NCBI GenBank assembly: GCA_031291235.1
Contig: JARLJL010000022.1
Span: forward strand, 458,355 to 482,354
Source: Sulfuriferula sp.
GTDB taxonomy: Bacteria > Pseudomonadota > Gammaproteobacteria > Burkholderiales > Sulfuriferulaceae
DNA: 24,000 nucleotides
Reading direction: 5' to 3'
In this document: positions 257 through 18,142 of the stretch, piece by piece
Position numbering within the stretch: the stretch's first letter is position 1
Layout of the letters: each line of letters starts with the position of its first letter
Made by a program: the position numbers and the translations under genes
Notes under the pieces: generated by a model
The model's input: only the letters and a program-made list of their open reading frames with translations
Database searches by the model: none
Told to the model about the DNA's origin: nothing

Positions 257-694
<438 letters not shown>

Positions 695-706
695 AGGAAT
701 TTCGAT

Positions 707-2128
707 ATGAAAAAATGGCTCATTGCGCTAAGTATATTATGCATCACCGGTATCTCCGGCGCGAGTATCGCCGACGATACCGCCCCAGCGCCCACACCTG
801 TGGATGCAACCGCCCCGGCACCCGAAGCAGCACCGCCAGCTCCGGCCCCAACAGCAACGCCACCGGTAACGCCGGTCGCTGCTGCGCCAGCTGCGGCACC
901 CGCCCCATCGGCATTCATCAATTCCGGCGACAATGCCTGGATGCTAACATCGACCGCGCTGGTATTGATGATGACCATCCCCGGCCTGGGGCTATTTTAC
1001 GGCGGTATGGTACGCAAGAAAAATGTGCTGGCTACGCTGATGCAGGTATTTGCCATCACCTGTCTGGTGACCGTACTGTGGATGATAGTCGGCTACAGTC
1101 TGGCATTTACGCCAGGCAATAGCTTCATCGGCGGTTTTAGCAGAGTCCTGCTGGCAGACATGGGGCTGGACAGCGCGAACCCGCTGGCACCGACCATACC
1201 GGAAAGCACTTACATGACATTCCAGATGACATTCGCCATCATCACGCCTGCCCTGATCGTCGGTGCATTCGCCGACCGGATGAAATTTTCCGCGCTTATC
1301 GTGTTTATGGCTGCCTGGTTGCTTGCCGTCTATGCACCGATTGCGCACATGGTCTGGGGACCCGGCGGCTGGCTAGGCGCTGACGGCGTACTCGATTACG
1401 CCGGCGGCACAGTGGTGCACACCAATGCCGGGATAGCCGGTTTGGTAGCTGCGCTGGTCATCGGTAAACGCATCGGTTACGGCACGGAGCCGATGCCGCC
1501 GCACAATCTGGTGCTGGCCATGATCGGCGCCTCGCTATTGTGGGTAGGCTGGTTCGGTTTCAACGCCGGATCGGCAGGTGCTGCCAGCGATCGCGCTGGC
1601 ATGGCCATGGCTGTCACCCAGATCGCGACTGCCACAGCCGCGCTCAGCTGGATGTTTGTCGAGTGGATGGGGCGAGGCAAGCCTAGCCTGCTGGGCATCT
1701 GTTCGGGCGCAGTGGCCGGGCTGGTTGCCATTACCCCGGCATCGGGTTTCGTCGCGCCTACCGGCGCACTGATTATCGGCCTGGCTGCAGGCAGCGCATG
1801 CTACTGGGGAGCCGTCTATCTGAAACGCATCATCGGCTACGACGATTCGCTGGATGCATTCGGCGTGCATGCCATCGGCGGTATCGTGGGGGCGTTACTG
1901 ACTGGGGTATTCGCGGTCAAGGCCATAGGCGGCACCGCCGGCGTACTCGAAGGCAACACCGACCAGTTATTGATTCAGGCAACCGGCGTCGGCGTTACCA
2001 TCGTCTACGATGCGGTAGTAACTTATATCATCCTCAAGCTGGTTGATGCATTTATAGGCCTGCGGGTAAGCGAGAGTCAGGAAGCGGAAGGGCTGGATAT
2101 CAGCCTGCACGGCGAACGGCTCGAATAA
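707..2128 (+). CDS. amtB: Ammonium transporter AmtB
   Basis: 473-aa polytopic membrane protein with Amt family motifs (AFADRMKF, VVHTNAGIAGLV, GWFGFNAGS, LDAFGVHAIGGIVG). It starts 12 nt after the glnK stop. It has a signal peptide followed by a Pro/Ala-rich stretch. Confidence 0.95.
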   Translation: MKKWLIALSILCITGISGASIADDTAPAPTPVDATAPAPEAAPPAPAPTATPPVTPVAAAPAAAPAPSAFINSGDNAWMLTSTALVLMMTIPGLGLFYGGMVRKKNVLATLMQVFAITCLVTVLWMIVGYSLAFTPGNSFIGGFSRVLLADMGLDSANPLAPTIPESTYMTFQMTFAIITPALIVGAFADRMKFSALIVFMAAWLLAVYAPIAHMVWGPGGWLGADGVLDYAGGTVVHTNAGIAGLVAALVIGKRIGYGTEPMPPHNLVLAMIGASLLWVGWFGFNAGSAGAASDRAGMAMAVTQIATATAALSWMFVEWMGRGKPSLLGICSGAVAGLVAITPASGFVAPTGALIIGLAAGSACYWGAVYLKRIIGYDDSLDAFGVHAIGGIVGALLTGVFAVKAIGGTAGVLEGNTDQLLIQATGVGVTIVYDAVVTYIILKLVDAFIGLRVSESQEAEGLDISLHGERLE

Positions 2129-2144
2129 CCGAACAGCCCGGCAA

Positions 2145-2183
2145 GCCGCTTATAACGCACCGACACATGGCGTTATAAGCGGC
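2145..2183 (+). terminator. Hairpin terminator after amtB
   Basis: Perfect 14-bp stem GCCGCTTATAACGC (2145-2158) pairs with GCGTTATAAGCGGC (2170-2183) around an 11-nt loop, 17 nt after the amtB stop. The T-tract is weak (ttaaagctt). Confidence 0.6.
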
Positions 2184-2305
2184 TTAAAGCTTGAGGCCGC
2201 ACAAAATTGGGCTTGCGCTTCATGATTTCGCCCCGTTTTATGTCATCGCCCAGAATCCGGCAACGCCAAACCAAATTCAAAATATCATACAAACCATTGA
2301 TTAGT

Positions 2306-2334
2306 TTGGCAAAACATTAGCAGTCTGCTATATA
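2306..2334 (+). promoter_or_regulatory. sigma70-like promoter (TTGGCA-N17-TATATA)
   Basis: -35 TTGGCA (2306-2311), a 17-nt spacer, and -10 TATATA (2329-2334) in an AT-rich intergenic region. It lies about 75 nt upstream of the GTG at 2410. Confidence 0.4.
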
Positions 2335-2409
2335 ACGAAATAATAATATATATGGTATGGTTTTTGCTGAATTAGTACTGTGACCAATAGAACCTAGTGA
2401 GGTGCTCAA

Positions 2410-2730
2410 GTGGATACGGACTTTGTACAATTACAATTAATGACCCGTCTCAAGCTGCAGTTAAAGCGGCGTCTCGATATCAAAATGGATATCCATCAAT
2501 TCCTTGCCGACCGCAGCTATGCAAAAGAGATGCTGCAGATTGCAGATCAATCCGAGGATGAGGACCTGATTATGTACTCGCTGCAGCTCTCAGGTCACTT
2601 AGGCTGGCTGGGTGCCAAATCCCTTGCAGCCAAAAAAGCGGCCTACGAACCACAAAGACTTGCTGCGGAACCCAAACCCCTGCATGCCGACGAAGCAACG
2701 AGCAGTTATATTTACGGTACTCGCGGTTAG
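2410..2730 (+). CDS. Hypothetical small protein (106 aa, GTG start)
   Basis: ORF with GAGGTG 7 nt upstream of GTG 2410, a promoter-like element upstream and a hairpin downstream. I recognise no family. Confidence 0.4.
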   Translation: MDTDFVQLQLMTRLKLQLKRRLDIKMDIHQFLADRSYAKEMLQIADQSEDEDLIMYSLQLSGHLGWLGAKSLAAKKAAYEPQRLAAEPKPLHADEATSSYIYGTRG

Positions 2731-2749
2731 CAAACATATCCGGCCCTGA

Positions 2750-2768
2750 CAGGGAGCAACGCTCCCTG
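2750..2768. terminator. Possible bidirectional hairpin between convergent genes
   Basis: CAGGGAGC-aac-GCTCCCTG forms an 8-bp stem with a 3-nt loop. It sits between the + ORF ending at 2730 and the - ORF ending at 2830. Confidence 0.45.
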
Positions 2769-2829
2769 CATTGCGGGTTACTGCAGTACGCTTCGCCTAT
2801 TTTCGTTGCCAACGGTTCCTGCTACTCCC

Positions 2830-3366
2830 TTATTTCATCTTCGAATCCAGTTTGATCCTCTCCCCGGCAACCATGAAATTACCGTAACCGAGATGATGAA
2901 TAGTGCGGGGATTTTCGACTGCGGGATCTATCCATGCCTGCACTACCCTGACGACAAACAGACCGTATTTGTTCACCATATCCGTATCGTGAATTCTGCA
3001 TTCCAGATTGGCATAACACTCCCCGATCAACGGCGCCGCAACCTGCGCGGCGAGCTCGGGCGTCAGGCCGAACATCGCAAACTTGTCCGTATCCGCACCG
3101 CTGGTATTGCCGCATCCCGCTACCTTGTCGGCAATCTCCACTGTGGGAATATTAATGACGCATTCGCCCGATGCCTGCAACATCCCGAAGGAATGATCGC
3201 GATTACTGAGCACGAGCCCCACCAGTGGCGGCTCAAATTCGATCATGGTATGCCACGACAGAGTCATGACATTGCGCTGCCCGCTATGCGCCGTCGTGAG
3301 CAGCACGACAGGCCCCGGCTCAAGCAAGCCGTAAACCCGTGACAAAGGAAAGGATTGCCGAGACAT
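2830..3366 (-). CDS. Flavin reductase family protein (FMN-binding split barrel)
   Basis: 178 aa with the flavin reductase-like pattern (GPVVLLTT..NVMTLSWHT..PPLVGLVL..SGECVINIP). AGGAGG lies upstream. It starts 11 nt after the stop of the upstream gene, so it is operonic. Confidence 0.85.
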   Translation of the reverse strand: MSRQSFPLSRVYGLLEPGPVVLLTTAHSGQRNVMTLSWHTMIEFEPPLVGLVLSNRDHSFGMLQASGECVINIPTVEIADKVAGCGNTSGADTDKFAMFGLTPELAAQVAAPLIGECYANLECRIHDTDMVNKYGLFVVRVVQAWIDPAVENPRTIHHLGYGNFMVAGERIKLDSKMK

Positions 3367-3377
3367 ATAAACGCCTC

Positions 3378-4127
3378 CTATTTCGCAGCTTTCCGCAAAA
3401 AAATGTAAATACCCGATACGATCAGTAACAGCAGCGTCGCCGATGCCGAAAAGCGGCTTAACTCCAGCCCGCCCTGACTGACCGGCTTATCCAGAAAATC
3501 GCCGACCACCGCCCCGAGCGGCCGCGTCAGGATGAATGCAGCCCAGAAAAGCACCGTATGCGAAATTCTGGTTCGATAGTACATCAATGCAATCACCGCC
3601 AGCATGGCGCCGAACAATATCGCCCCGCCCTCATATCCGAGCCCTGCCGTATCGGCAGTCCAATCGCCCAGTGCAGTACCGAGCGTCTGGGAAAACATGA
3701 TGGTAACCCAGTAAAACATCTCGGATTTCGGCGAGCTTACCGTATCCACCGCTACCGAACCCAGCGCGTAATACCAGACCAGCAGCGATGCCATAAGCAA
3801 AGTAAACAGGATGTCCGTGCCGCCAGCATAGCCGATACCCAGCGAACGATCGGCGAAATCCGCCATGGTAGTGCCGACTGTGGTGGTCGCAATGATTGTC
3901 GTCCAGTAAATGACCGGATGAAATTTCTTTGCAGAAATTTGCGCAATCACCGCGGCAATAAATATGGCCGCAAATATCCCTGTACTGACGAGATAGCCGA
4001 GCTGCATCGACATGGATACGGCATCGCCGCCGGTCTCGCCCAGCGTGGTGGCAAAAATCTTGATAACCCAGAAAGCAAGCGTTACCTCGGGGACCTTGCT
4101 TAGCGCTTGTTGCTGCATTGCGTTCAT
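3378..4127 (-). CDS. COG4705-like membrane-anchored protein
   Basis: The start is taken at MNAMQQQ (GAGGAA SD); the track ORF extends to 4178 and overlaps the upstream gene. It is polytopic, with four repeats of a TM segment followed by an xLGxxxGD motif (TTLGETGGD, GTTMADFAD, QTLGTALGD, RPLGAVVGD). Confidence 0.75.
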   Translation of the reverse strand: MNAMQQQALSKVPEVTLAFWVIKIFATTLGETGGDAVSMSMQLGYLVSTGIFAAIFIAAVIAQISAKKFHPVIYWTTIIATTTVGTTMADFADRSLGIGYAGGTDILFTLLMASLLVWYYALGSVAVDTVSSPKSEMFYWVTIMFSQTLGTALGDWTADTAGLGYEGGAILFGAMLAVIALMYYRTRISHTVLFWAAFILTRPLGAVVGDFLDKPVSQGGLELSRFSASATLLLLIVSGIYIFLRKAAK

Positions 4128-4146
4128 CTTTTCCGTTCCTCGATTA

Positions 4147-4488
4147 TTAGTTACCGCCGGCGTCCGGCTCCACCACAACCGCCGTGCCGTAGCACAGCAC
4201 CTCGGTAAGCCCCGCCATCAGCTCCGTGGCATCATAACGCATGGATATGACCGCATTTGCGCCCAACTGTTCAGCATGACGGCACATCAGCAAATAAGTC
4301 TCCAGACGCGCCTGCTCGCAAAGATTGGTATAGATGGTGATATTGCCGCCGAAGATCGTCTGCAGCCCGCCAAAAATATTTCCTACAATGGAGCGCGAAC
4401 GGACGGTAATGCCGCGAACGACGCCGAGACTACGTACCACCTTGTAACCCGGTAACGTGAGCGCTGTTGTGACCATAGCGTTTTGCAT
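4147..4488 (-). CDS. YbjQ/UPF0145 family protein
   Basis: 113 aa. The pattern TT..LPGY.V....G.V.G..VRSR....NI.GGLQ..FGG.I..Y..LCE.AR......M...A...GANAV...RYD is typical of the YbjQ family. Confidence 0.85.
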
Positions 4489-4596
4489 GCTATCTCCCGA
4501 TTGATGACAGAGTTAAAATTAAAATAAGTATATTTTAGAGATACATCGCATCTGGCACCCTGTCCTACTATAGAAAACCAGCGCCACATCATGCTA

Positions 4597-5184
4597 TTAA
4601 CACAAAGTTAATCCCACGTTCCGCAAATACTGAATAGCAATATTCAAGGTAATATCGTACTGATTTAGCTCGCAAACGAGGCTTAACTCGGAAGACGCGC
4701 CCATGCGCGTGTTCACAAGAGGAAAACCAATGTTATGAAACATCTTGTTAGGCAAGAGATTGGATGCCTTTGGTTCACACTTGATAGTTTTGAGTTTAAA
4801 TTCGTTATAAAAATTCAGCGTGGATAAGCAAAAGAGAATCGCACCATATCCCTTCCTCCTAAAGGAAGAGTCCCACATATGAAGGTGAATTTCGCCACAC
4901 TCCCCGAACCGAATGTTTTTCAAACTGGAAAAACCGATAGGCATGTCATTAACCAACCAGATTAAATAGGCAACTTCGGCATCTTGTTGCGTTTGTGCAA
5001 GCATACTTTTAAGGCTCATCTCGAATTGCTCCGCAGTCGGCATTTTCGACGCATCCGCCCCCATACGAAGCAAATCTTCAGGCGAAGATTTCAACCAATA
5101 ATCTACGATATGCGGAATATCACTCAAATCCAACCCCCGCACTGCGAAATTAACATCGGATGCCAACAGTTTTCCCTCTATCAT
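4597..5184 (-). CDS. GNAT family N-acetyltransferase
   Basis: 195 aa with an acetyl-CoA binding motif A-like FRRKGYGAILF and overall GNAT layout. Its composition is AT-richer than the flanks. Confidence 0.75.
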   Translation of the reverse strand: MIEGKLLASDVNFAVRGLDLSDIPHIVDYWLKSSPEDLLRMGADASKMPTAEQFEMSLKSMLAQTQQDAEVAYLIWLVNDMPIGFSSLKNIRFGECGEIHLHMWDSSFRRKGYGAILFCLSTLNFYNEFKLKTIKCEPKASNLLPNKMFHNIGFPLVNTRMGASSELSLVCELNQYDITLNIAIQYLRNVGLTLC

Positions 5185-5207
5185 GCAAGATTCGCTGAAA
5201 TAACTTG

Positions 5208-5546
5208 TTAAGCAGATATTTTGCCATAGGCGCGTTCAACTTTCGCCACGCGAACCTCGTAGTGTTGGTACCATGCCGTTTTTCCCGATTGCTGGGCGGC
5301 GAGATGTTCCAGATTGGCTTTCCAGTCGGCAACAGCTTCCGCAGATGCCCAATATGAGACCGTAATACCAAAGCCATCTTCACCGCGAGCACTCTCAACG
5401 CCGAGGAAACCGGGTTGCCGGGATGCAAGCTCGACCATGCGCTCGGCTATTTGAGCGTAACCGTTATCCCCGGGAGTTCTAAGAGAGGAAAAAATCACTG
5501 CGTAGTACGGTGGCTGTGGCGTTATCGGGAATGCAGAGATACTCAT
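5208..5546 (-). CDS. Antibiotic biosynthesis monooxygenase (ABM) domain protein
   Basis: The start is taken at MSISAF; the track ORF extends to 5612. The pattern YYAVIFSS.R...D.GY..IAERM.ELA..QPGFLGVESAR...G.GITVSYW.S.EA...WK is typical of the ABM/Dabb fold family. Confidence 0.7.
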   Translation of the reverse strand: MSISAFPITPQPPYYAVIFSSLRTPGDNGYAQIAERMVELASRQPGFLGVESARGEDGFGITVSYWASAEAVADWKANLEHLAAQQSGKTAWYQHYEVRVAKVERAYGKISA

Positions 5547-5590
5547 TGGGATACCTATCCAGGGCGATAAAAAATGAACTCGCAAGTCAT

Positions 5591-5620
5591 ATCGTGCCGT
5601 GCTGCCGATCAAATATCAAG
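5591..5620 (-). promoter_or_regulatory. Conserved 30-nt upstream motif, copy 1 (ATCGTGCCGTG-N9-AAATATCAAG)
   Basis: 25/30 identical to 8759-8788, with both flanking blocks identical (11/11 and 10/10). It lies 45-75 nt upstream of the ABM gene start. The minus strand reads TTGATA-N17-CACGAT. Confidence 0.45.
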
Positions 5621-5684
5621 CTTGCCATATAGACCAATTACTTAAGTTATATCTCATGAAAGCCCGTTCATTCTGATGGGCGAG

Positions 5685-5927
5685 CTAAACCACTGAAATG
5701 ACAATACGCGCATCGTCTTTGTGATCCGTAATATCAAGAATATTGCCGGACACCTCGCCTGATTTGGCGGCATTGATTATTTCCTGAACGTTTAATCCTT
5801 TGGCTTCAATGGCGGCGATTGCCTGACGGGGCATTAACTTTGAGGCAATTTGCAGAACAAGCAGAGGAATTTTTACAGTAGTTTCGTGCACGCTATTTGC
5901 GAAAACCTCGATAACCAGATTTGACAT
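5685..5927 (-). CDS. Hypothetical protein (80 aa)
   Basis: Clean ORF with AAGGAG 6 nt upstream of the ATG. I recognise no family. Confidence 0.55.
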   Translation of the reverse strand: MSNLVIEVFANSVHETTVKIPLLVLQIASKLMPRQAIAAIEAKGLNVQEIINAAKSGEVSGNILDITDHKDDARIVISVV

Positions 5928-6175
5928 GTAAGCTCCTTTAGGACAATAAGTGGCGCTCTATACGTATGAAAAAGACGCGCCTCACGTAAAAGTGAATGAC
6001 TCGCCGAACACGAAAAGTGATCGCAGTTCAGGCCATGTAACCTATCACAAGCCATGAAACAAGCGCCACCTTTTGACCAGCCCACTCAACTGACAGATTT
6101 GACATTGTTAAAACACCAGTGCGATGGTTCATATTGATGCCCCCCAAGGATTGCCGCTGGGAGAAGAAAGATAGT

Positions 6176-6189
6176 AGCCGAATTCGGCT
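6176..6189 (-). terminator. Hairpin terminator after the glycosylase gene
   Basis: Perfect palindrome AGCCGAATTCGGCT lies 7 nt after the stop. On the minus strand it is followed by actatctttcttctc, which is T-rich. Confidence 0.5.
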
Positions 6190-6195
6190 GCGTGC

Positions 6196-6624
6196 TCATA
6201 GACGCTCCCATGATTCAACCTCACCTGGATATACATTAAACACCGGATGAGGTTCTGGCCCTGCTATATTTCGCCAGGTCTCATGCAGCGCAGGGCTGCG
6301 CGCCTGCAATTTCGTTAGAAGGTGCTGCCACTCGTACGCCATCTGGCCGGAAGTAACGGTAAGCGACACTACCTGTCCGGCCGGCTTGATTTTGCTTTTA
6401 TCAAAGGCATACCCCCGCACCTGTGCCTCCGCATGAATGCCATTCAAATACAGCGAAATCGCTGTCAGTGGCGCAGAATGATTTTTGAAACGATCCAACT
6501 GCGGATGGTTACGATAGCCACGCGTTTCCCCATGCAGAACAGCCTGCGCCAGAAGTGATTCCCGCCACAGCGCGGTCAACCCTTGGGAATCAAGATACTT
6601 GGGATGTATCGACCAGAGACGCAT
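6196..6624 (-). CDS. Pyrimidine dimer DNA glycosylase / endonuclease V (DenV-like)
   Basis: 142 aa. The N-terminus MRLWSIHPKYLDSQGLTALWRESLLAQAVL..GYRNHPQL.RF is the signature of the Pyr_excise (T4 endo V-like) family. Confidence 0.85.
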   Translation of the reverse strand: MRLWSIHPKYLDSQGLTALWRESLLAQAVLHGETRGYRNHPQLDRFKNHSAPLTAISLYLNGIHAEAQVRGYAFDKSKIKPAGQVVSLTVTSGQMAYEWQHLLTKLQARSPALHETWRNIAGPEPHPVFNVYPGEVESWERL

Positions 6625-6721
6625 GATTTATCACCTTCAATACCTGAGCTAATACGCCCCGCTGCAGGGTCGACTTACACGAATTGTCAGGCCTATGACT
6701 GACCGGCCAAGCTATTGCGGA

Positions 6722-7039
6722 TTAGTGATTGTCGAGCTTGCCTAATTCACTTTCCAGCAGGCTCACCATCTTGTGGGCAGCGCGTGTACCGCTTGCTCAA
6801 TTGTGAGCGCCTCATCGCTTACCGATGTCGGCTCACGCCCCGCGAGCCGCGCCTCAAGCAAGCATCGCTTGTCAATGACACCGGGCTTCGAAGCGCTGTT
6901 CTCGTCACTCAGATGCACTTCCAGTCTGGTAATTATGACCAGCGAAGCGCGCTAGAACGTGATTAAGAGTTGCCTCGATACTATGAACCAGTGCCTCGCG
7001 CCCAGAGATATTCTTGTCTGAATTTACTTGGATATACAT
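6722..7039 (-). pseudogene. HPF/RaiA-family (S30AE-like) ribosome-associated protein, disrupted by two frameshifts
   Basis: Three family-like segments sit in two frames. MYIQVNSDKNISGREALVHSIEATLNHVLARFAGH is in frame 0. ITRLEVHLSDENSASKPGVIDKRCLLEARLAGREPTSVSDEALTIEQAVHA is in frame +1. AAHKMVSLLESELGKLDNH* is back in frame 0. The shifts fall near 6933 (an extra A) and near 6782 (a missing nt). Confidence 0.6.
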
Positions 7040-7072: not shown

Positions 7073-7135
7073 GCCTAACGTGAAATCAAGATGCGCCGCG
7101 CGTTTCGGCGTCCTTTTTGAATACCAAGGTAGGGC
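7073..7135 (-). repeat. attC-like site (relic or solitary)
   Basis: GCCTAAC (7073-7079) is followed by gtgaa-ATCAAG, a GC hairpin (gcgccg/cggcgt), TTGAAT, ccaag and GTAGGGC (7129-7135). This is the same R/spacer/L architecture and orientation as the confirmed attC sites at 12.8-16 kb. The stop codon of the upstream ORF abuts the right core. Confidence 0.45.
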
Positions 7136-12843: not shown

Positions 12844-12922
12844 GCCGTAACGTGAAGCTAAGGGGCGCGCCAAAGGCGCGTCCCAGCGACCAAAGGGAGC
12901 GAACTTGAGCGTAGGGTTAGCC
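12844..12922 (-). repeat. attC of cassette 6 (distal end of array)
   Basis: gccgtaac-gtgaa-gctaagg-ggcgcgccaaaggcgcgtcc...cttgagc-gtagg-gttagcc. It resembles the attC at 13411-13470 but carries a 19-nt insertion and degenerate cores. The TAA stop of the cassette ORF lies inside the GTTA core. Confidence 0.7.
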
Positions 12923-13405
12923 CACACGTTTTCGGACCCCAGCATAGGAAAATATGGGTACGCAGACAAGCACCAATAATAAACCAGCCAAGCGTTCGCC
13001 AAGATACTCACTTGCATTTCCCCAAACATGAACACTAGGTTCACTGGGAATATATGTGACAAGCCCTGAATCTCCCGCCTTTATTGCCTCGCACGTTGGA
13101 TTGCCATATCCATCAGAGCCTAGCTCATTAACGATAGTGGTGCCGACCGAGAACTGATAGCGAATATGGTGCTTTTCACCTTGCCGACAATCAACTTCGA
13201 CTACTCGTGCGGGAGCACTAATGCCTGAAGTTGTTAACCAGAGGTAAGGCAGCATGTTGCCAAGAAACATGGCGAACACAGATGCCGTAGTGACGATTGC
13301 AATTGCGAGGGGTGAATGTTGCCGATAGTACCAATACAACCCTAACGCCACGCCAACAGAGCCCAAGGAAAATAGGAGAATCTGAAATACGTTCAGGATG
13401 TTCAT
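12917..13405 (-). CDS. DUF3592-like membrane protein (cassette 6)
   Basis: 162 aa with N-terminal TM helices, a beta-rich segment (ARVVEVDCRQGEKHHIRYQFSVGTT...) and a C-terminal TM helix, which is the DUF3592 layout. It fills the cassette 12851-13416. Confidence 0.65.
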   Translation of the reverse strand: MNILNVFQILLFSLGSVGVALGLYWYYRQHSPLAIAIVTTASVFAMFLGNMLPYLWLTTSGISAPARVVEVDCRQGEKHHIRYQFSVGTTIVNELGSDGYGNPTCEAIKAGDSGLVTYIPSEPSVHVWGNASEYLGERLAGLLLVLVCVPIFSYAGVRKRVG

Positions 13406-13410
13406 GTGGG

Positions 13411-13470
13411 GGCTAACGTGGAGCTAAGGGGCGCCGCTTCGCGGCGTCCCGCTTGAGCGTAGGGTTAGGC
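13411..13470 (-). repeat. attC of cassette 5
   Basis: GGCTAAC-gtgga-GCTAAG-gggcgccgcttcgcggcgtccc-gCTTGAGC-gtagg-GTTAGGC. This is the canonical R/L box structure with one extrahelical base in the L box pair. Confidence 0.85.
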
Positions 13471-13488
13471 AGACGTTGATGCATACGA

Positions 13489-13782
13489 TTACTCTCCATA
13501 TGTATTGAGAGCCAAGAATACACCAATGTAAAGCGAAACGAACGTAGCCAAACCTGCGCAGAATACCCACAACCCCTCTCGATATAAAGCCGAAGCTAAC
13601 CATTTTGTTTTTAGAAGAACCAAGAGATATGCAGCAAACGCAAGAATCGAAGAAACACCAAGCCAGAGAGCCATCAAAAAACCAGAAGGCAAGTTGAGGC
13701 CAAAGAATTTAGTGCCATATGCCGTAAAGAGGAAAGCGACATGAATGCAGGCGACCAAAACGATTTGCGCAATCAACTTCAT
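13489..13782 (-). CDS. Hypothetical polytopic membrane protein (97 aa, cassette 5)
   Basis: ORF with 3-4 hydrophobic helices that fills the cassette 13417-13796. Its ATG lies 8 nt after the GTTAGGC core. I recognise no family. Confidence 0.55.
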   Translation of the reverse strand: MKLIAQIVLVACIHVAFLFTAYGTKFFGLNLPSGFLMALWLGVSSILAFAAYLLVLLKTKWLASALYREGLWVFCAGLATFVSLYIGVFLALNTYGE

Positions 13783-13790
13783 GGGGGTAT

Positions 13791-13857
13791 GCCTAACGTT
13801 TGAATTGAGCGGCCTGCGCGGCTTTTCGCGCAGGTCCGCTCGAATGATGGGTTGGGC
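13791..13857 (-). repeat. attC of cassette 4
   Basis: GCCTAAC ... cctgcgcggcttttcgcgcagg ... GTTGGGC. The central hairpin is shared with the attC sites at 14194, 15062 and 15913. Confidence 0.85.
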
Positions 13858-13890
13858 ACATGGTCTCTCAGTTTCCTTTTCGCTTGGCTT

Positions 13891-14118
13891 TCACAAGCTC
13901 ATCAGCGGGCTAAGCCCGGAAGGGAGGTGGCGCTCCCAAAACACGATGACGTGGTTGATGATACGTTTTGCATATGCCATTACCTCACAAACTGCCTTCT
14001 TGACCATAAGCAAACCCTCCTTTCGAGTTGAAGATAGACGAGCAATTACTTCCGTGATTACAAATCCTAGCCAGAAGCTGGTAGGGCCAATAACTACATG
14101 AATAAAGCCTGCCATCAT
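13891..14118 (-). CDS. Possible small membrane protein (75 aa, cassette 4)
   Basis: This is the only minus-strand ORF fully inside cassette 13797-14199 besides a TTG-started 62-aa ORF. It has an N-terminal hydrophobic helix. An internal AAGGAGG-N8-ATG could instead give a 38-aa product. Support is weak. Confidence 0.3.
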   Translation of the reverse strand: MMAGFIHVVIGPTSFWLGFVITEVIARLSSTRKEGLLMVKKAVCEVMAYAKRIINHVIVFWERHLPSGLSPLMSL

Positions 14119-14193
14119 CAGTCTCAGGAGGCCACCTCTGAGAGACGCACGATTGTGCGTTTCGGCATTTCAAAACGGTACGGCGAGTAATGT

Positions 14194-14259
14194 GCCCAAC
14201 GTGGAGCTAACCCGCCTGCGCGGCTTTTTGCGCAGGTCGGGTTGAGCGCAGGGTTAGGC
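14194..14259 (-). repeat. attC of cassette 3
   Basis: GCCCAAC-gtgga-gctaac-ccgcctgcgcggctttttgcgcaggtcgg-gttgagc-gcagg-GTTAGGC. Confidence 0.85.
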
Positions 14260-14286
14260 GAATGTGGCTCCGAAAGTAAGGCACTT

Positions 14287-15027
14287 TTAACCAACCAGTT
14301 TGTGTTGGAAGGCGTAATGTCTTCCTTTGTCGGTTAGGTAAAGGCTCTTAATAATGTCTTGCTTAACTAGCCCAAGAGCTACGGCTTCTTTGATAGTGAT
14401 ATCAAGCAGAAGCCTTGACGCTTTCGAATTGCGAACGATTTTATCGTAGGAGATGTAGTCCAATGTGTGCGACTCAAAGTCTCGAATTATCAGTGTCATC
14501 AATTCGAGAACAGCGTCTGCGGATTTTTCGGCTGGTGTTTCTTGTGGCGGCGTGAAAGGATTATTCCCAATTGGGGGCTTTTTGAAAAGCGGAGAGCCCA
14601 CCAAAGTTCGAACTAGTTCATCGAATGAGAATTCTGCTTCATCATCCTTGGAAAAATCGACGAATAGCTTCGTTTTGAGAAAAGTGGGTACGTTTCTTGT
14701 GCCAGCTTGCCTGATGATCGGAATGACCTTATTGGAGTCAATTGACTTTAACAGGTCTGAAGTGACGATCATTTTTTCATATCCAACGCCACCGACTCCT
14801 GAATTTGCCTTTTCAACATACTTGTCAGTGCAAATCATTAGAACTCTGTTGGCAGCTGCCAAATTTTGCTCCATAAAGTGTGTCAAGTCGTCTCCAGGCT
14901 GGAGTTCCCACTGATCTAGGATTGCATCGATACCAGAGTTTCTAAGCCTGATGGCGAAGTCCATCACCCATTTTTTGTGGACTTGCGAGTCGTGTGAATA
15001 CGAAATAAAAACTCGTGGGATTGTCAT
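14287..15027 (-). CDS. TIR/SEFIR-like (STIR superfamily) domain protein with a C-terminal winged-helix-like region (cassette 3)
   Basis: 246 aa. The N-terminal 150 aa or so read RVFISYSHDSQVHKKWVMDFAIRLRNSGIDAILDQWELQPGDDL..FMEQNL..ANRVLMICTDKYVEKANSGVGGVGYE, the pattern of bacterial TIR/SEFIR domains. A Pro-rich linker follows, then about 85 aa ending ..LVKQD..SLYLTDKGRHYA, which looks like a wHTH wing. Confidence 0.8.
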   Translation of the reverse strand: MTIPRVFISYSHDSQVHKKWVMDFAIRLRNSGIDAILDQWELQPGDDLTHFMEQNLAAANRVLMICTDKYVEKANSGVGGVGYEKMIVTSDLLKSIDSNKVIPIIRQAGTRNVPTFLKTKLFVDFSKDDEAEFSFDELVRTLVGSPLFKKPPIGNNPFTPPQETPAEKSADAVLELMTLIIRDFESHTLDYISYDKIVRNSKASRLLLDITIKEAVALGLVKQDIIKSLYLTDKGRHYAFQHKLVG

Positions 15028-15061
15028 GTGTAAGTACTTTCAGAAACCTGTATCTGAGATT

Positions 15062-15129
15062 TCCTAACGACTGAATTCACCGGACCTGCGCGGCTTTTCG
15101 CGCAGGTCCGGTGGAATGAGGGGTTAGTC
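15062..15129 (-). repeat. attC of cassette 2
   Basis: TCCTAAC ... ggacctgcgcggcttttcgcgcaggtcc ... GTTAGTC. The TAA stop of the two-TM ORF lies inside the GTTA core. Confidence 0.85.
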
Positions 15130-15633
15130 TTTTGGAGAAGGACCGTCATTGACGCCACCGGCTTTATCGGCCATGGAAGCGGGTTCATCCCCCCCTTCAT
15201 CCCCCCCTTCATCCCCCCCTTCATCCTCCCCTTCATCCTCCTCTTCAAGCGACAGAACATCAGGTGGGATGCGTTGACGGATTTTCTTGCACAACTCCTT
15301 AACCTCGCTTCTGGCTCGCCACCACGCAATCATGAGGTACGCGCCAAGCAAGATTCCTACCACGGCAATAATGATGAACGTAGTTTCGATAGACCGGTTT
15401 GCAAAGGTGGCTGTTTCAAGAGACGCGATTGCTGAGAATGCGAGCGATAGAAGAAAAATGGCGAAGTTCAGCTGTAGGTCTGCTGGAGTTCCTTTTTCCA
15501 GCGCGTCAAGCTCAGTGTCCTTGATCTCATAGAGATCGACCGATTCGACTCTACCCCTTCGCACACGAAGGGGTGTGCTGTCGTCAAGTTGTTTGTTGTT
15601 CTGGGCCATGGCTATAGGTTCTTCTTCAGCCAT
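15124..15633 (-). CDS. Two-TM membrane protein with acidic (DEGG)n tail (cassette 2, distal gene)
   Basis: 169 aa from ATG 15633, or 161 aa from ATG 15609. It has a charged N-terminus and two hydrophobic helices (LQLNFAIFLLSLAFSAIASL, TTFIIIAVVGILLGAYLMIAWW). A basic helix follows, then the tail EEEDEGEDEGGDEGGDEGGDE. I recognise no family. Confidence 0.65.
   Translation of the reverse strand: MAEEEPIAMAQNNKQLDDSTPLRVRRGRVESVDLYEIKDTELDALEKGTPADLQLNFAIFLLSLAFSAIASLETATFANRSIETTFIIIAVVGILLGAYLMIAWWRARSEVKELCKKIRQRIPPDVLSLEEEDEGEDEGGDEGGDEGGDEPASMADKAGGVNDGPSPKD
15184..15243. repeat. 12-bp tandem repeat (5 units, 3 perfect) containing C7/G7 tracts
   Basis: ttcatccccccc occurs three times (15184-15219), followed by ttcatcctcccc and ttcatcctcctc. 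This encodes the (GGDE)n acidic tail of the two-TM ORF. Confidence 0.9.
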
Positions 15634-15881
15634 TCGCTATGTTTGGAACTGATAGCACTACGCCACGCTGCTTCAGTCCCGGAGCGGATAACGAACAATC
15701 TATCTCCAGAAGCCAACACCTCTTTTAGGTGGTCGCGAATTTCAGCAGCTTTTTGGTCCGTGACGATCGCCCAACAGGTGTTATTAATCGGACAGTACTT
15801 CGGGTACGTCTTAAGACGCTCCCGTAAGCTCTGCCGAACAGCAAGCTGTTTTGCTTGAAAAGAAACGATGTAACAGGTCAT
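15612..15881 (-). CDS. Hypothetical small soluble protein (89 aa, cassette 2, proximal gene)
   Basis: Clean ORF inside cassette 15068-15918. Its stop is at 15612-15614, overlapping or abutting the start of the two-TM ORF. It opens MTCYIVSF and looks like alternating strands and helices. I recognise no family. Confidence 0.6.
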   Translation of the reverse strand: MTCYIVSFQAKQLAVRQSLRERLKTYPKYCPINNTCWAIVTDQKAAEIRDHLKEVLASGDRLFVIRSGTEAAWRSAISSKHSEWLKKNL

Positions 15882-15912
15882 TGTATAAATGTACCGTGTA
15901 TTTTGTACATAA

Positions 15913-15982
15913 GGCTAACGTGGTGGTAACCGGCGCTGCGCGGCTTTATCGCGCAGCGTCCGTGTTGACCGCAGGGTTAGAC
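15913..15982 (-). repeat. attC of cassette 1
   Basis: GGCTAAC-gtggt-ggtaacc-ggcgctgcgcggctttatcgcgcagcgtcc-gtgttgacc-gcagg-GTTAGAC. Confidence 0.85.
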
Positions 15983-16048
15983 CTCTGGCGGCCGCAAAGA
16001 AAGCGTTGCGCCTGCGCGATGAAGCTAGAGAGCCGATAAGTTTGCGCA

Positions 16049-16348
16049 CTAGCTCTCCTCGGTTCCCGCAACCAAGCGTTCAACCGTAGCCAAGAAGGCA
16101 GGCATTTCACTGAAACTCCCACCAAACCGTTCTCGAACCAAAGGCCCTTGATCCTTCCATTGGCCGGGAGCGCTTTCCACTTGAAGGAGACCGTGCCTCT
16201 CCTTTCCATCCCACACCAGGCGGAATCTCGGACCGCGCCCGGCAAATACGGCATAGGCAGAACCAAACGCCTCGGGGTTCAAGTGTTCTTCCACCAAGGT
16301 TCCACCTGCGCCACGGACAACTTCGCGGAGAGACGAGTACGCGTGCAT
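16049..16348 (-). CDS. Hypothetical protein (99 aa, cassette 1, attI-proximal)
   Basis: ORF starting 5 nt after the attI crossover core. It is visibly more GC-rich than the neighbouring cassettes. I recognise no family. Confidence 0.55.
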   Translation of the reverse strand: MHAYSSLREVVRGAGGTLVEEHLNPEAFGSAYAVFAGRGPRFRLVWDGKERHGLLQVESAPGQWKDQGPLVRERFGGSFSEMPAFLATVERLVAGTEES

Positions 16349-16353
16349 AAGAG

Positions 16354-16411
16354 GTCTAACGTGAAATATACACCGATTCGGTGTATATTAAATTCTCAAA
16401 ATCGGTGTATA
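16354..16411 (-). other. attI region: crossover core GTTAGAC (minus strand) plus three copies of a 10-12-bp box
   Basis: gtctaac (16354-16360) is the boundary of the first cassette. A perfect 25-bp palindrome AATATACACCGA-t-TCGGTGTATATT lies at 16365-16389. A third copy, TCGGTGTATA, lies at 16402-16411. Confidence 0.65.
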
Positions 16412-16564
16412 ACACGAATTCTCCCAACAAATTTCACGACCACATATCATAGACACTAGATCAGAAAATATTTAAAAAATAATTATTATCAATAATATAA
16501 ATAACAAACCAATAATTTTTTATGAATTCTGTTTTACGTTGATTAAGCTAGATAGGCACCTATA

Positions 16565-17551
16565 TTGGAAAATACAAACACACCTATTTTTACCTCTCCA
16601 AAACTACTCGATCAGGTACGCAATCTCATTAGGGTCAAGCATTACAGCATCCGTACAGAAACGCAATATGTGCAGTGGATAAAACGTTACATTTTATTTC
16701 ATAACAAGCGCCACCCGAGCGAAATGGGTGCAACGGAAGTTGCATCATTTTTGACTCATCTGGCGGTATCGGGGCATGTCTCATCCTCTACCCAGAACCA
16801 GGCGTTGTCTGCGATACTGTTTCTATATCGGGATGTACTGGGGGTGGACCTTCCCTGGTTAAAAGACGTGGTACGAGCCAAACAGCCGCAGCGTTTACCG
16901 GTGGTATTGACGCGTACAGAAGTGAGGGCAATTCTCGCCCGGATAAAAGGTGCACATGGTTTGATGGCACATTTACTATACGGTACTGGCATGCGTTTAA
17001 TGGAATGTGTGCGTCTGCGAGTGAAAGATGTGGATTTTGAACGCCTTGAAATTTTAATCCGCGATGGCAAGGGAGCGAAAGACCGCATCACCATGCTGCC
17101 GGATTCTATTGCGCCCCTACTGCAGGCGCATTTGGTACAACGGCGTGTATTATTTGACGACGATGCGCGCATGGGTAAGGTTTCAGTTTATTTGCCCGAT
17201 GCACTGGCGGTCAAATATCCTAACGCACCTCAAGAATGGGGCTGGCAATACATTTTTCCATCCGGCAGCTTTTCTGTTGATCCGCGTAGCGGCGTGGAAC
17301 GGCGACACCATATTGATGAGAAACTATTACAACGCGCGATGAAAAAAGCCGTGCAGGAAACTGGCATACCCAAGCCGGCAACGCCCCATACTTTGCGCCA
17401 CTCATTTGCTACACATCTACTGGAATCAGGTTACGATATTCGCACCATACAAGAGCTCCTGGGACATGCAGACGTGGCTACGACAATGATTTACACGCAT
17501 GTACTGAACAAAGGCGGGCGCGGTGTGACTAGCCCGCTGGATCAATTATAA
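16565..17551 (+). CDS. intI: Integron integrase IntI (tyrosine recombinase)
   Basis: 328 aa, collinear with IntI1 by eye (LLDQVR..IR..HYS.RTE..YV.WI; [19 protein letters not shown]; GKGAKDR; [12 protein letters not shown]; LLGH; IYTHV). It carries the IntI-specific insertion [21 protein letters not shown]. All catalytic R-K-H-R-H-Y positions are present. It has a TTG start with no clear SD. Confidence 0.95.
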
Positions 17552-17590: not shown

Positions 17591-17914
17591 TCAAACCACA
17601 CCCAGAAACACCGCCAGCGCCCTGCTCACTGCCAGCATGTCTTCTTCTGCCATATGCCCGAATATCTCACCGATTTTTTCACGAGGAACGGTTTGCACCT
17701 TATCTACCATGATTTGGGATGTCTTACGCAGTCCGTTTGTCTCATTTGGTTCAACCGAAATGCGAAATAACGGTGTATCGCGCAAGTCACCCGTCACTGG
17801 CAAGATAGTCACGGATGGGTGCTCGGCAAATAGATCGGATTGGATAATCAGCGCGGGTCTTGGTTTGCCATAGGTGCCTTGCAAAGCAATTGTGACCAGA
17901 TCGCCGCGCCTCAT
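17591..17914 (-). CDS. mazF: Type II toxin, PemK/MazF family
   Basis: MRRGDLVTIALQGTYGKPRPALIIQSD...ILPVT....TPLFRI.V.P...NGL.K.SQIMVDK..TV.R.KIG is the PemK/MazF pattern. An ATGA overlap with the antitoxin stop favours a start at 17914; the track start is 17920. Confidence 0.85.
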   Translation of the reverse strand: MRRGDLVTIALQGTYGKPRPALIIQSDLFAEHPSVTILPVTGDLRDTPLFRISVEPNETNGLRKTSQIMVDKVQTVPREKIGEIFGHMAEEDMLAVSRALAVFLGVV

Positions 17915-18123
17915 TCCCACCCCTCGGTATCTGCAGCCGCTTCAAGCCAGCCCAACACATCAGTCTCTTGCGCGTCGTCGCGCAGCATTAGCGACTGACG
18001 ACGACATTCCGCTGCAAAATCGCTGCGGCGTGTATCCGGCACCCAAATCTGCACTGGGCGTAAGCCCGCCGCGCGTAATCCGGCACGGTGTTTTTGTACT
18101 CGTTCAGTCACATTTTTCCTCAT
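17911..18123 (-). CDS. Antitoxin, MazE-like (DUF3018 type)
   Basis: 70 aa. RVQKHRAGLRAAGLRPVQIWVPDTRRSDFAAECRRQS is the DUF3018/MazE-like antitoxin signature. It lies immediately upstream of the toxin and overlaps it. Confidence 0.8.
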   Translation of the reverse strand: MRKNVTERVQKHRAGLRAAGLRPVQIWVPDTRRSDFAAECRRQSLMLRDDAQETDVLGWLEAAADTEGWE

Positions 18124-18142
18124 CAGGTTCTCCTTTCAATTT

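Follow-up and report, generated by a model that had tools for sequence, protein, structure and literature searches.

A short bSEFIR-family protein with a predicted winged-helix tail is carried as a mobile cassette in a chromosomal integron of Sulfuriferula sp.

The stretch of DNA analysed here, hereafter the window, comprises 24,000 nucleotides of Sulfuriferula sp. (GenBank assembly GCA_031291235.1, contig JARLJL010000022.1, positions 458,355 to 482,354 of the forward strand), and it holds a small integron whose third cassette carries a single gene for a 246-amino acid (AA) protein with an N-terminal SEFIR domain and a predicted winged helix at the C-terminus (Table 1). The original prediction, made from the sequence alone, had placed a stand-alone TIR/SEFIR-like protein in an integron cassette at 14200–15067, and this proved to be the exact span between the G|TT crossovers of attC2 and attC3. 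The integrase scores 488.8 bits against the NCBIfam integron-integrase model TIGR02249 (cutoff 265) and matches Pfam Phage_integrase and SAM_4, and an identical protein is named 'integron integrase [Sulfuriferula sp.]' by NCBI. The six attC sites are imperfect palindromes of 60–78 nt, each with an R'' (RYYYAAC) and an R' (GTTRRRY) box. Of these, attC2 and attC3 fold as single-stranded DNA hairpins (z = −3.9 to −8.1), and all six score 55–84 bits with a covariance model built from themselves, a circular measure that yet shows them to be one family. All cassette open reading frames (ORFs) and attC top strands lie on the minus strand and point away from attI. The SEFIR cassette consists of a 40-nt leader, one ORF and 27 nt between the stop codon and attC3; with a GC content of 44.9% (43.6% in the ORF) against 53.4% in the surrounding chromosome, it is the most AT-rich element of the array. 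The occurrence of such an attC-bounded cassette beside an integrase gene is far beyond chance.

Table 1. Position and nature of the SEFIR gene, its domains and the elements of the integron, in coordinates of the window.
Feature	Coordinates	Strand	Basis or detail
SEFIR gene cassette, 868 nt, third of six	14200..15067	minus	G|TT crossover G at 15068 and 14200
bSEFIR-family gene, 246 AA + stop	14287..15027	minus	sole ORF of cassette, ATG start, ORF list
SEFIR/TIR domain, AA 1–145, predicted NADase effector	14593..15027	minus	Pfam, PDB, Foldseek
E84 codon in GGVGYE motif, candidate catalytic glutamate	14776..14778	minus	read from sequence
Pro-rich linker, AA 146–166, conserved motif PLFxKPxIGxNPF	14530..14592	minus	low predicted local distance difference test score (pLDDT), 53–67 (AlphaFold2)
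Winged-helix domain, AA 167–246, predicted sensor or regulatory module	14290..14529	minus	AlphaFold2, Foldseek
attC3, recombination site of SEFIR cassette, R'' GCCTAAC ... R' GTTGGGC	14194..14259	minus	−20.7 kcal/mol, z = −3.9, 83.8 bits
attC2, site of preceding cassette; R' GTTAGGA sets 5' boundary of SEFIR cassette	15062..15129	minus	−24.9 kcal/mol, z = −8.1, 78.6 bits
attC1	15913–15982	minus	R''/R' boxes, palindrome
attC4	13791–13857	minus	R''/R' boxes, palindrome
attC5	13411–13470	minus	R''/R' boxes, palindrome
attC6	12845–12922	minus	R''/R' boxes, palindrome
Whole cassette array, six cassettes	12845..16359	minus	bounded by attC1–attC6
intI integron integrase, 328-AA tyrosine recombinase, divergent from array	16565..17551	plus	TIGR02249, Pfam
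attI/promoter region; attI crossover GTTAGAC, G at 16360	16340..16564	minus	sequence

The encoded protein is a member of the catalogued single-gene bSEFIR family, in a short form with a small winged-helix tail. Its translation is identical to the one quoted in the original prediction, which had also called for a search with PADLOC; in this search, the bSEFIR model matched residues 1–196 with E = 1.7e-79 and 266.6 bits, a score equal to or higher than those of long-form relatives (234–262 bits). Within AA 5–138, Pfam recognizes both TIR_2 (E = 1.4e-20, 74.4 bits, cutoff 28) and SEFIR (E = 1.1e-13, 52.2 bits, cutoff 23). The closest solved structure is the 'Sefir domain protein' of Bacillus cereus (5y8e/5y8f), and in a sequence search of the PDB, 5y8e was found at E = 2.2e-28 over AA 4–153 as against 6.4e-4 for the best TIR domain. 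Foldseek comparison of the AlphaFold2 model again placed 5y8e/5y8f on top, with 40% identity and a template modelling score (TM) to the target of 0.78–0.82, followed by TIR domains including those of SARM1, AbTir, SPARTA and MyD88. The assignment of a SEFIR/TIR-type N-terminus is thereby upheld by profile, sequence and structural comparison alike. Long-form relatives also match just the N-terminal 170–330 positions of the PADLOC profile, and the model therefore hardly constrains the C-terminus; since the whole score derives from the N-terminal part in long and short forms alike, the catalogued family is effectively defined by the SEFIR module.

Conservation was counted over 150 representatives sharing at most 50% identity, whatever their C-terminus. 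Near invariant across this set are the FISYSH strand, D38-x-W40 and the loop G79-G80-x-G82-Y83-E84, with E84 kept in 149 of 150 representatives and D38 of the ILDxW motif in 144 of 146. In the Bacillus SEFIR protein of the crystal structure (5y8e), the Glu of GGVGTE is the aligned counterpart of E84, and an Asp of the B. cereus crystal protein aligns with D38, making D38 a candidate counterpart of D40 in the protein of Bacillus NIO-1130. The original prediction had singled out E84 in GVGYE, where the codon indeed lies, and had likened it to the catalytic Glu of TIR NADases; such an equivalence is plausible by position only, that is, about 80 residues into the domain. The Pro-rich linker that had been called downstream of this domain was recovered as well. 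Its residues P151 (99%) and G154 (100%) are conserved across representatives with completely different C-terminal regions, which suggests that the motif at its start (AA 146–158, 14554..14592) may serve the entire bSEFIR clade as a common hinge or regulatory element.

That the C-terminal ~80 residues adopt a winged helix, as was originally proposed, is supported by structural modelling. AlphaFold2 folded the domain alone with a pLDDT of 93.2 and a predicted TM of 0.84 in the topology alpha1-beta1-alpha2-alpha3-beta2-beta3-alpha4, and all leading Foldseek matches in the PDB were winged helices (TM 0.6–0.72), including YodB, IclR, Sso10a, OhrR, HrcA, DtxR, SSV1 F-93, AF1382 and MarR; their E-values, 0.013 at best, are in the range usual for a query of 84 residues. 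A sequence profile of the domain gave a weak match to SSV1 F-93 (1tbx, E = 0.0037) and to IdeR/DtxR, and a Pfam scan of the C-terminal region returned no meaningful family. One detail has to be corrected: the segment LYLTDKGRHYA had been labelled the wing, and while it does belong to a predicted winged helix, LYL is modelled as beta3, the last strand of the wing hairpin (AA 221–231), and DKGRHYAFQ as an extra fourth helix. With the winged helices of MarR/HxlR, IclR, DtxR and Sso10a the predicted domain shares the order alpha1-beta1-alpha2-alpha3-beta2-beta3 and a Ser-Arg pair at the start of the third (recognition) helix, which in the SEFIR tail is the invariant S204-R205; K/R236 is invariant too. 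Unlike them, it belongs to no sequence family, has the additional C-terminal helix and a neutral charge, and is fused to a predicted enzyme domain, not to a ligand-binding regulator domain. The helix-turn-helix-plus-wing segment on its own is mildly basic (family median isoelectric point (pI) 8.75). A winged-helix profile search for other architectures found 17 short proteins, all truncated pieces of the same family with a SEFIR end and linker, and a search with the C-terminal 96 AA alone gave one fragment from six candidates, a yield set by the word-index limit and not evidence of absence.

The nearest structures of the tail are transcription factors, and one fragment of the family carries the label 'predicted transcriptional regulator' from JGI. 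The protein might accordingly be read as a DNA-binding regulator or adaptor, in which the winged helix binds DNA and the SEFIR domain is just an interaction module, as in IL-17R/Act1, neither enzyme activity nor defence being involved. The authors of the crystal structure, as quoted in the work describing the discovery of the SEFIR system, in fact first proposed that bacterial SEFIR domains serve generally in interactions. We find this improbable. The near-absolute conservation of E84 and its GGVGYE loop across unrelated C-termini points to catalysis, the family has been tied experimentally to defence in that work and to NAD+ depletion according to later papers citing it, and the winged-helix domain as a whole lacks a basic character.

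When 1.84 billion representatives were searched exhaustively with HMMER, 9317 relatives were retrieved at E ≤ 1e-3; a further search gave 2033 homologues, many of which are full length at 244–248 AA. Clustered at 90%, the 246-AA family is large and conserved in length, extending to Pseudomonas, Lysobacter, Rhodanobacter, Limnohabitans, Oleispira and others, and its members are annotated just as 'TIR domain-containing protein'. Among the representatives, a great variety of C-termini follows the SEFIR module (AA 1 to ~165), and partner lengths range from 200 to 880 AA with a median of 324. The winged-helix C-terminus is present in 17 of 151 representatives, nearly all of ~250 AA, and the remainder have different, mostly longer tails. 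Neighbours of homologues outside integrons include MADS mad2/mad3, PDC-S05, PDC-S66, a type II restriction endonuclease, AriA, LmuA and ThsB-like proteins. One full-length relative resides on an Aliarcobacter plasmid. As a separate observation, the SEFIR module alone (AA 1 to ~160, 35–47% identity) occurs in 180 plasmid records; conjugative plasmids of E. coli, Enterococcus and Bacillus commonly carry it, and it is also found in temperate phages of Klebsiella, E. coli and Clostridium.

The SEFIR cassette is mobile as a discrete unit. In a Thiobacillus metagenome-assembled genome (MAG), two contig ends together hold a copy of 92% nucleotide identity, in which homology spans 15043 to 14199 and thus ends at the attC3 crossover, the flanks being unrelated. 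Three metagenome contigs (L027–L029) encode a protein of 91% identity (88% at the nucleotide level), and the stretch homologous to the window starts at 15069, no more than one base from the G|TT crossover 15068/15067; in L027 an R' box, GTTAGGC, lies just upstream of this start. Relatives in Amphibiibacter and Saccharospirillum have attC-like sites with canonical boxes and hairpins on both sides, and such sites also flank relatives in Pseudoalteromonas rubra, in an Oleiphilaceae MAG and possibly in Flavobacterium, while the detectors used found no attC sites around those in Acinetobacter, Vibrio, Luteimonas and others. No IntI was encoded within 6 kb of any of 24 related genome loci, and at these loci the flanking attC sites, where present, are the evidence for cassette carriage. 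With regard to detection, a strict regular-expression scan for attC was dropped, as it missed even sites found by the covariance model, and a looser scan was noisy, with about one match per 3 kb, and was used only after inspection of individual sites. Taken over these loci, the SEFIR family is recurrently but not exclusively cassette-borne. In Saccharospirillum alexandrii (L012), 11 hairpins with AAC...GTT ends, several sharing GCATAAC...GTTATGC boxes, were noted at 356..6798 in the 6.8 kb around the homologue; this run is likely to represent a cassette array of larger size, and the 6-kb flank holds no integrase.

The gene is under purifying selection. Codon differences from the Thiobacillus copy comprise 38 synonymous and 17 non-synonymous changes, and their distribution is uneven: the ratio is 26:5 over the SEFIR domain but 11:11 over the tail. 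Constraint acts on the effector domain, while the C-terminus changes more rapidly, as would be expected if the latter served as a sensor. These data also bear on whether the cassette could be silent or in decay, a passenger that at present does nothing for its host, as might be suspected from its third position in the array, the absence of a promoter-like site from its leader and a GC content, given above, that suggests recent foreign origin. A Pc-like −35/−10 site lies at 16492–16465 in the attI–intI spacer (27% GC) and is a consensus match only. A passenger of this kind is very improbable in our view: besides the clear signature of purifying selection, the reading frame is intact, full length and identical on independent metagenome contigs, and the storage of functional but unexpressed cassettes is the normal mode of integrons (sedentary-integron paper).

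SEFIR was discovered as a single-gene anti-phage defence system, in which the protein of Bacillus sp. NIO-1130 protects B. subtilis from phi29 and the D40A substitution abolishes protection, and homologues were recorded in 460 genomes of more than 20 phyla (Millman et al. 2022). According to later papers citing this work, the system depletes NAD+ via the N-terminal SEFIR domain, giving ADP-ribose and nicotinamide, and is overcome by the phage NAD+ reconstitution pathway NARP1. Compared with that system (PADLOC PDLC03957), the protein described here has the same N-terminal SEFIR domain and invariant residues, the same stand-alone gene and a presumed NAD+ depletion; it differs from the family profile by its length (246 AA against 412 positions) and its 80-residue winged helix, and from the validated Bacillus protein by its proteobacterial host and cassette-borne gene. 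We consider it likely that this promoterless cassette of a small chromosomal integron encodes a bSEFIR-type abortive-infection NADase. By analogy with the Bacillus homologue and the TIR NADases we infer that the protein would share their NADase chemistry, their dependence on oligomerization and a defence phenotype. The guess of a stand-alone NAD+-consuming defence protein contained in the original prediction matches, by this analogy, the published account of the SEFIR family.

We propose that in the uninfected cell the SEFIR protein would be made by read-through transcription from the integron promoter region and would be inactive. Upon infection, a phage-derived cue may be sensed via the C-terminal winged helix and/or the conserved linker and would drive SEFIR–SEFIR self-association. 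The assembled domains would then hydrolyse NAD+ to ADP-ribose and nicotinamide, presumably using the invariant glutamate E84 of GGVGYE, and the ensuing depletion of NAD+ would halt phage replication in an outcome of the abortive-infection type. A constant effector combined with a variable sensor is the usual layout, and the variable C-termini of SEFIR proteins fit it. A role as toxin–antitoxin stabilizer was considered and rejected, as the cassette contains a single ORF and a NADase free of regulation would kill the cell.

The relation to TIR systems deserves separate comment. With the TIR NADases (ThsB, SPARTA TIR-APAZ, AbTir, TIR-STING, retron-TIR and SARM1) the protein shares a flavodoxin-like fold (Foldseek probability 1.0, TM to target 0.65–0.79), a TIR_2 match of 74 bits and an invariant Glu ~80 residues into the domain. 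It differs from them in that its sequence alignments to these proteins cover residues 10–74 only, that its Glu sits in the SEFIR-specific glycine-rich loop GGVGYE, and that the gene has no Argonaute, STING, SAVED or ThsA partner. Weak similarity to other TIR models (NCBIfam ThcB4, E = 0.021; PADLOC SAVED_TIR, 2.9e-5), together with the ThsB-like proteins that neighbour some homologues, could be taken to indicate a ThsB-like signal producer, synthesizing a cyclic ADP-ribose-like messenger that would act on the product of a distant effector gene, instead of depleting NAD+ by itself. We attach little probability to this explanation. The stand-alone bSEFIR match is far stronger (1.7e-79 as opposed to 1e-5 or weaker), and the gene travels on its own in a cassette that turns up in unrelated contexts, a mode of transfer that a two-part system could not sustain. 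In agreement with the single-gene architecture proposed at the outset, the cassette has one ORF, and no ThsA, SIR2, SLOG, SAVED or other defence partner was found in it or across the 24-kb window; the locus thus lacks the adjacent ThsA-type effector (SIR2/SLOG or Macro/TM) by which Thoeris (ThsB + ThsA) is composed.

Several observations weigh against our preferred reading of the gene as a bSEFIR-type abortive-infection NADase. The PADLOC bSEFIR match extends over positions 35–241 of 412, and positions 242–412 are unmatched. The discoverers required a stronger match to SEFIR than to TIR in HHsearch against PDB and Pfam (Millman et al. 2022); in our data, the PDB search ranks SEFIR first, but Pfam hmmscan ranks TIR_2 (74.4 bits) above SEFIR (52.2 bits), as it does for all long-form relatives examined. 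Sequence alignments to the TIR NADases BtTir, BtpA and AbTir stop at residue 73–74 and so fall short of E84. The whole winged-helix domain is approximately neutral (pI 7.1 in the query, family median 6.5), and nucleic-acid sensing is therefore not favoured by charge. As the third cassette, and without a promoter of its own, the SEFIR gene may be poorly expressed. Finally, activity data for any member of the short winged-helix subfamily were not found in the literature searched.

Within the preferred reading, the role of the tail may be envisaged in more than one way. We tentatively put forward, while rating it rather unlikely, that the protein is a minimal self-contained SEFIR sensor–effector, in which direct recognition by the winged helix, either of a phage nucleic acid or of a DNA-binding protein of the phage, would seed the assembly of SEFIR oligomers that hydrolyse NAD+, the short form having been selected for carriage by integrons. 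Alternatively, the winged helix of a SEFIR NADase could serve in dimerization or auto-inhibition, and the SEFIR domain or the linker would be the target of the trigger. The conservation of the linker motif despite different C-termini would fit a shared regulatory element outside the winged helix; such domains often mediate protein contacts, the Foldseek matches including the cullin WHB and Rpa2 WH domains, and the domain is neutral in charge. However, the C-terminal region is the variable, faster-evolving part of the family, which is the usual signature of a specificity-determining sensor, and we judge it unlikely that the tail serves in dimerization or auto-inhibition instead of sensing. Mechanistic or structural follow-up on the C-terminal regions of bSEFIR or on its trigger was not found in the literature searched.

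The other five cassettes of the array gave no Pfam or PADLOC family match. Cassette 2 (15068..15918) has overlapping minus-strand ORFs at 15612..15881 (89 AA) and 15124..15633 (169 AA) and may be a two-gene module; the shorter product has a faint Cas2b-like match in PADLOC (E = 0.007), and the longer has an apparently hydrophobic middle and an acidic (E/D-G)n tail that derives from a 12-nt tandem repeat at 15184–15247. In cassette 4 (13797..14199) the ORFs, which lie on both strands, are all short and ambiguous; this cassette may carry no gene at all or one for a peptide of at most 75 AA. Cassettes 5 and 6 (12851..13796) encode small proteins of 97 and 162 AA that appear hydrophobic and membrane-like by sequence. 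A further, weak attC-like element with the same CACGTTAGGCC end as the array sites was picked up by the covariance model (E = 0.21) at 7073..7135 on the minus strand, 5.7 kb past the last cassette and on the other side of cytochrome b561 genes and a two-component system; it may represent an orphan attC or what is left of an older array. On the other side of the integron, the gene table of an identical metagenome contig (L030) places a pair of PemK-toxin and MazE-like antitoxin genes between intI and an M18 aminopeptidase gene, outside the array (17594..17920 and a small ORF at ~17917–18130, both on the minus strand). An ORF of the window also matches the PADLOC candidate family PDC-M43B (E = 7e-13), in an output that names no specific ORF.

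Integrons are reported to harbour streamlined defence systems that are shorter than usual (Darracq et al. 2024; Kieffer et al. 2024/2025). Like the cassettes described in those studies, the SEFIR cassette is a compact, attC-bounded single-gene system shorter than most of its non-integron relatives; it differs in belonging to a small six-cassette integron of a sulfur-oxidizing betaproteobacterium. The sedentary-integron paper speaks of no SEFIR or TIR cassette, either in its main text or in the supplement examined, and nowhere in the literature searched, beyond a list in a review, was SEFIR linked with integron cassettes. The single-gene SEFIR architecture is already published and catalogued and is not new in kind. 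What may be regarded as modestly new is the short winged-helix sub-architecture, the documented life as an integron cassette and the linker conserved throughout the family.

Our analysis documents genes of the bSEFIR type, a defence family of predicted NADases, as integron cassettes, so that a predicted NAD+-depleting, TIR-like effector joins the compact defences of integrons, and it does so in an environmental sulfur oxidizer instead of a Vibrio or a clinical plasmid. The linker motif common to all C-terminal variants points to a common regulatory element. The short form composed of SEFIR domain, linker and predicted winged helix (~246 AA) is widespread, and its small size makes it an attractive minimal model for studies of SEFIR activation. 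If the protein were indeed a minimal sensor–effector, it would constitute the smallest tractable model for the triggering of SEFIR/TIR NADases.

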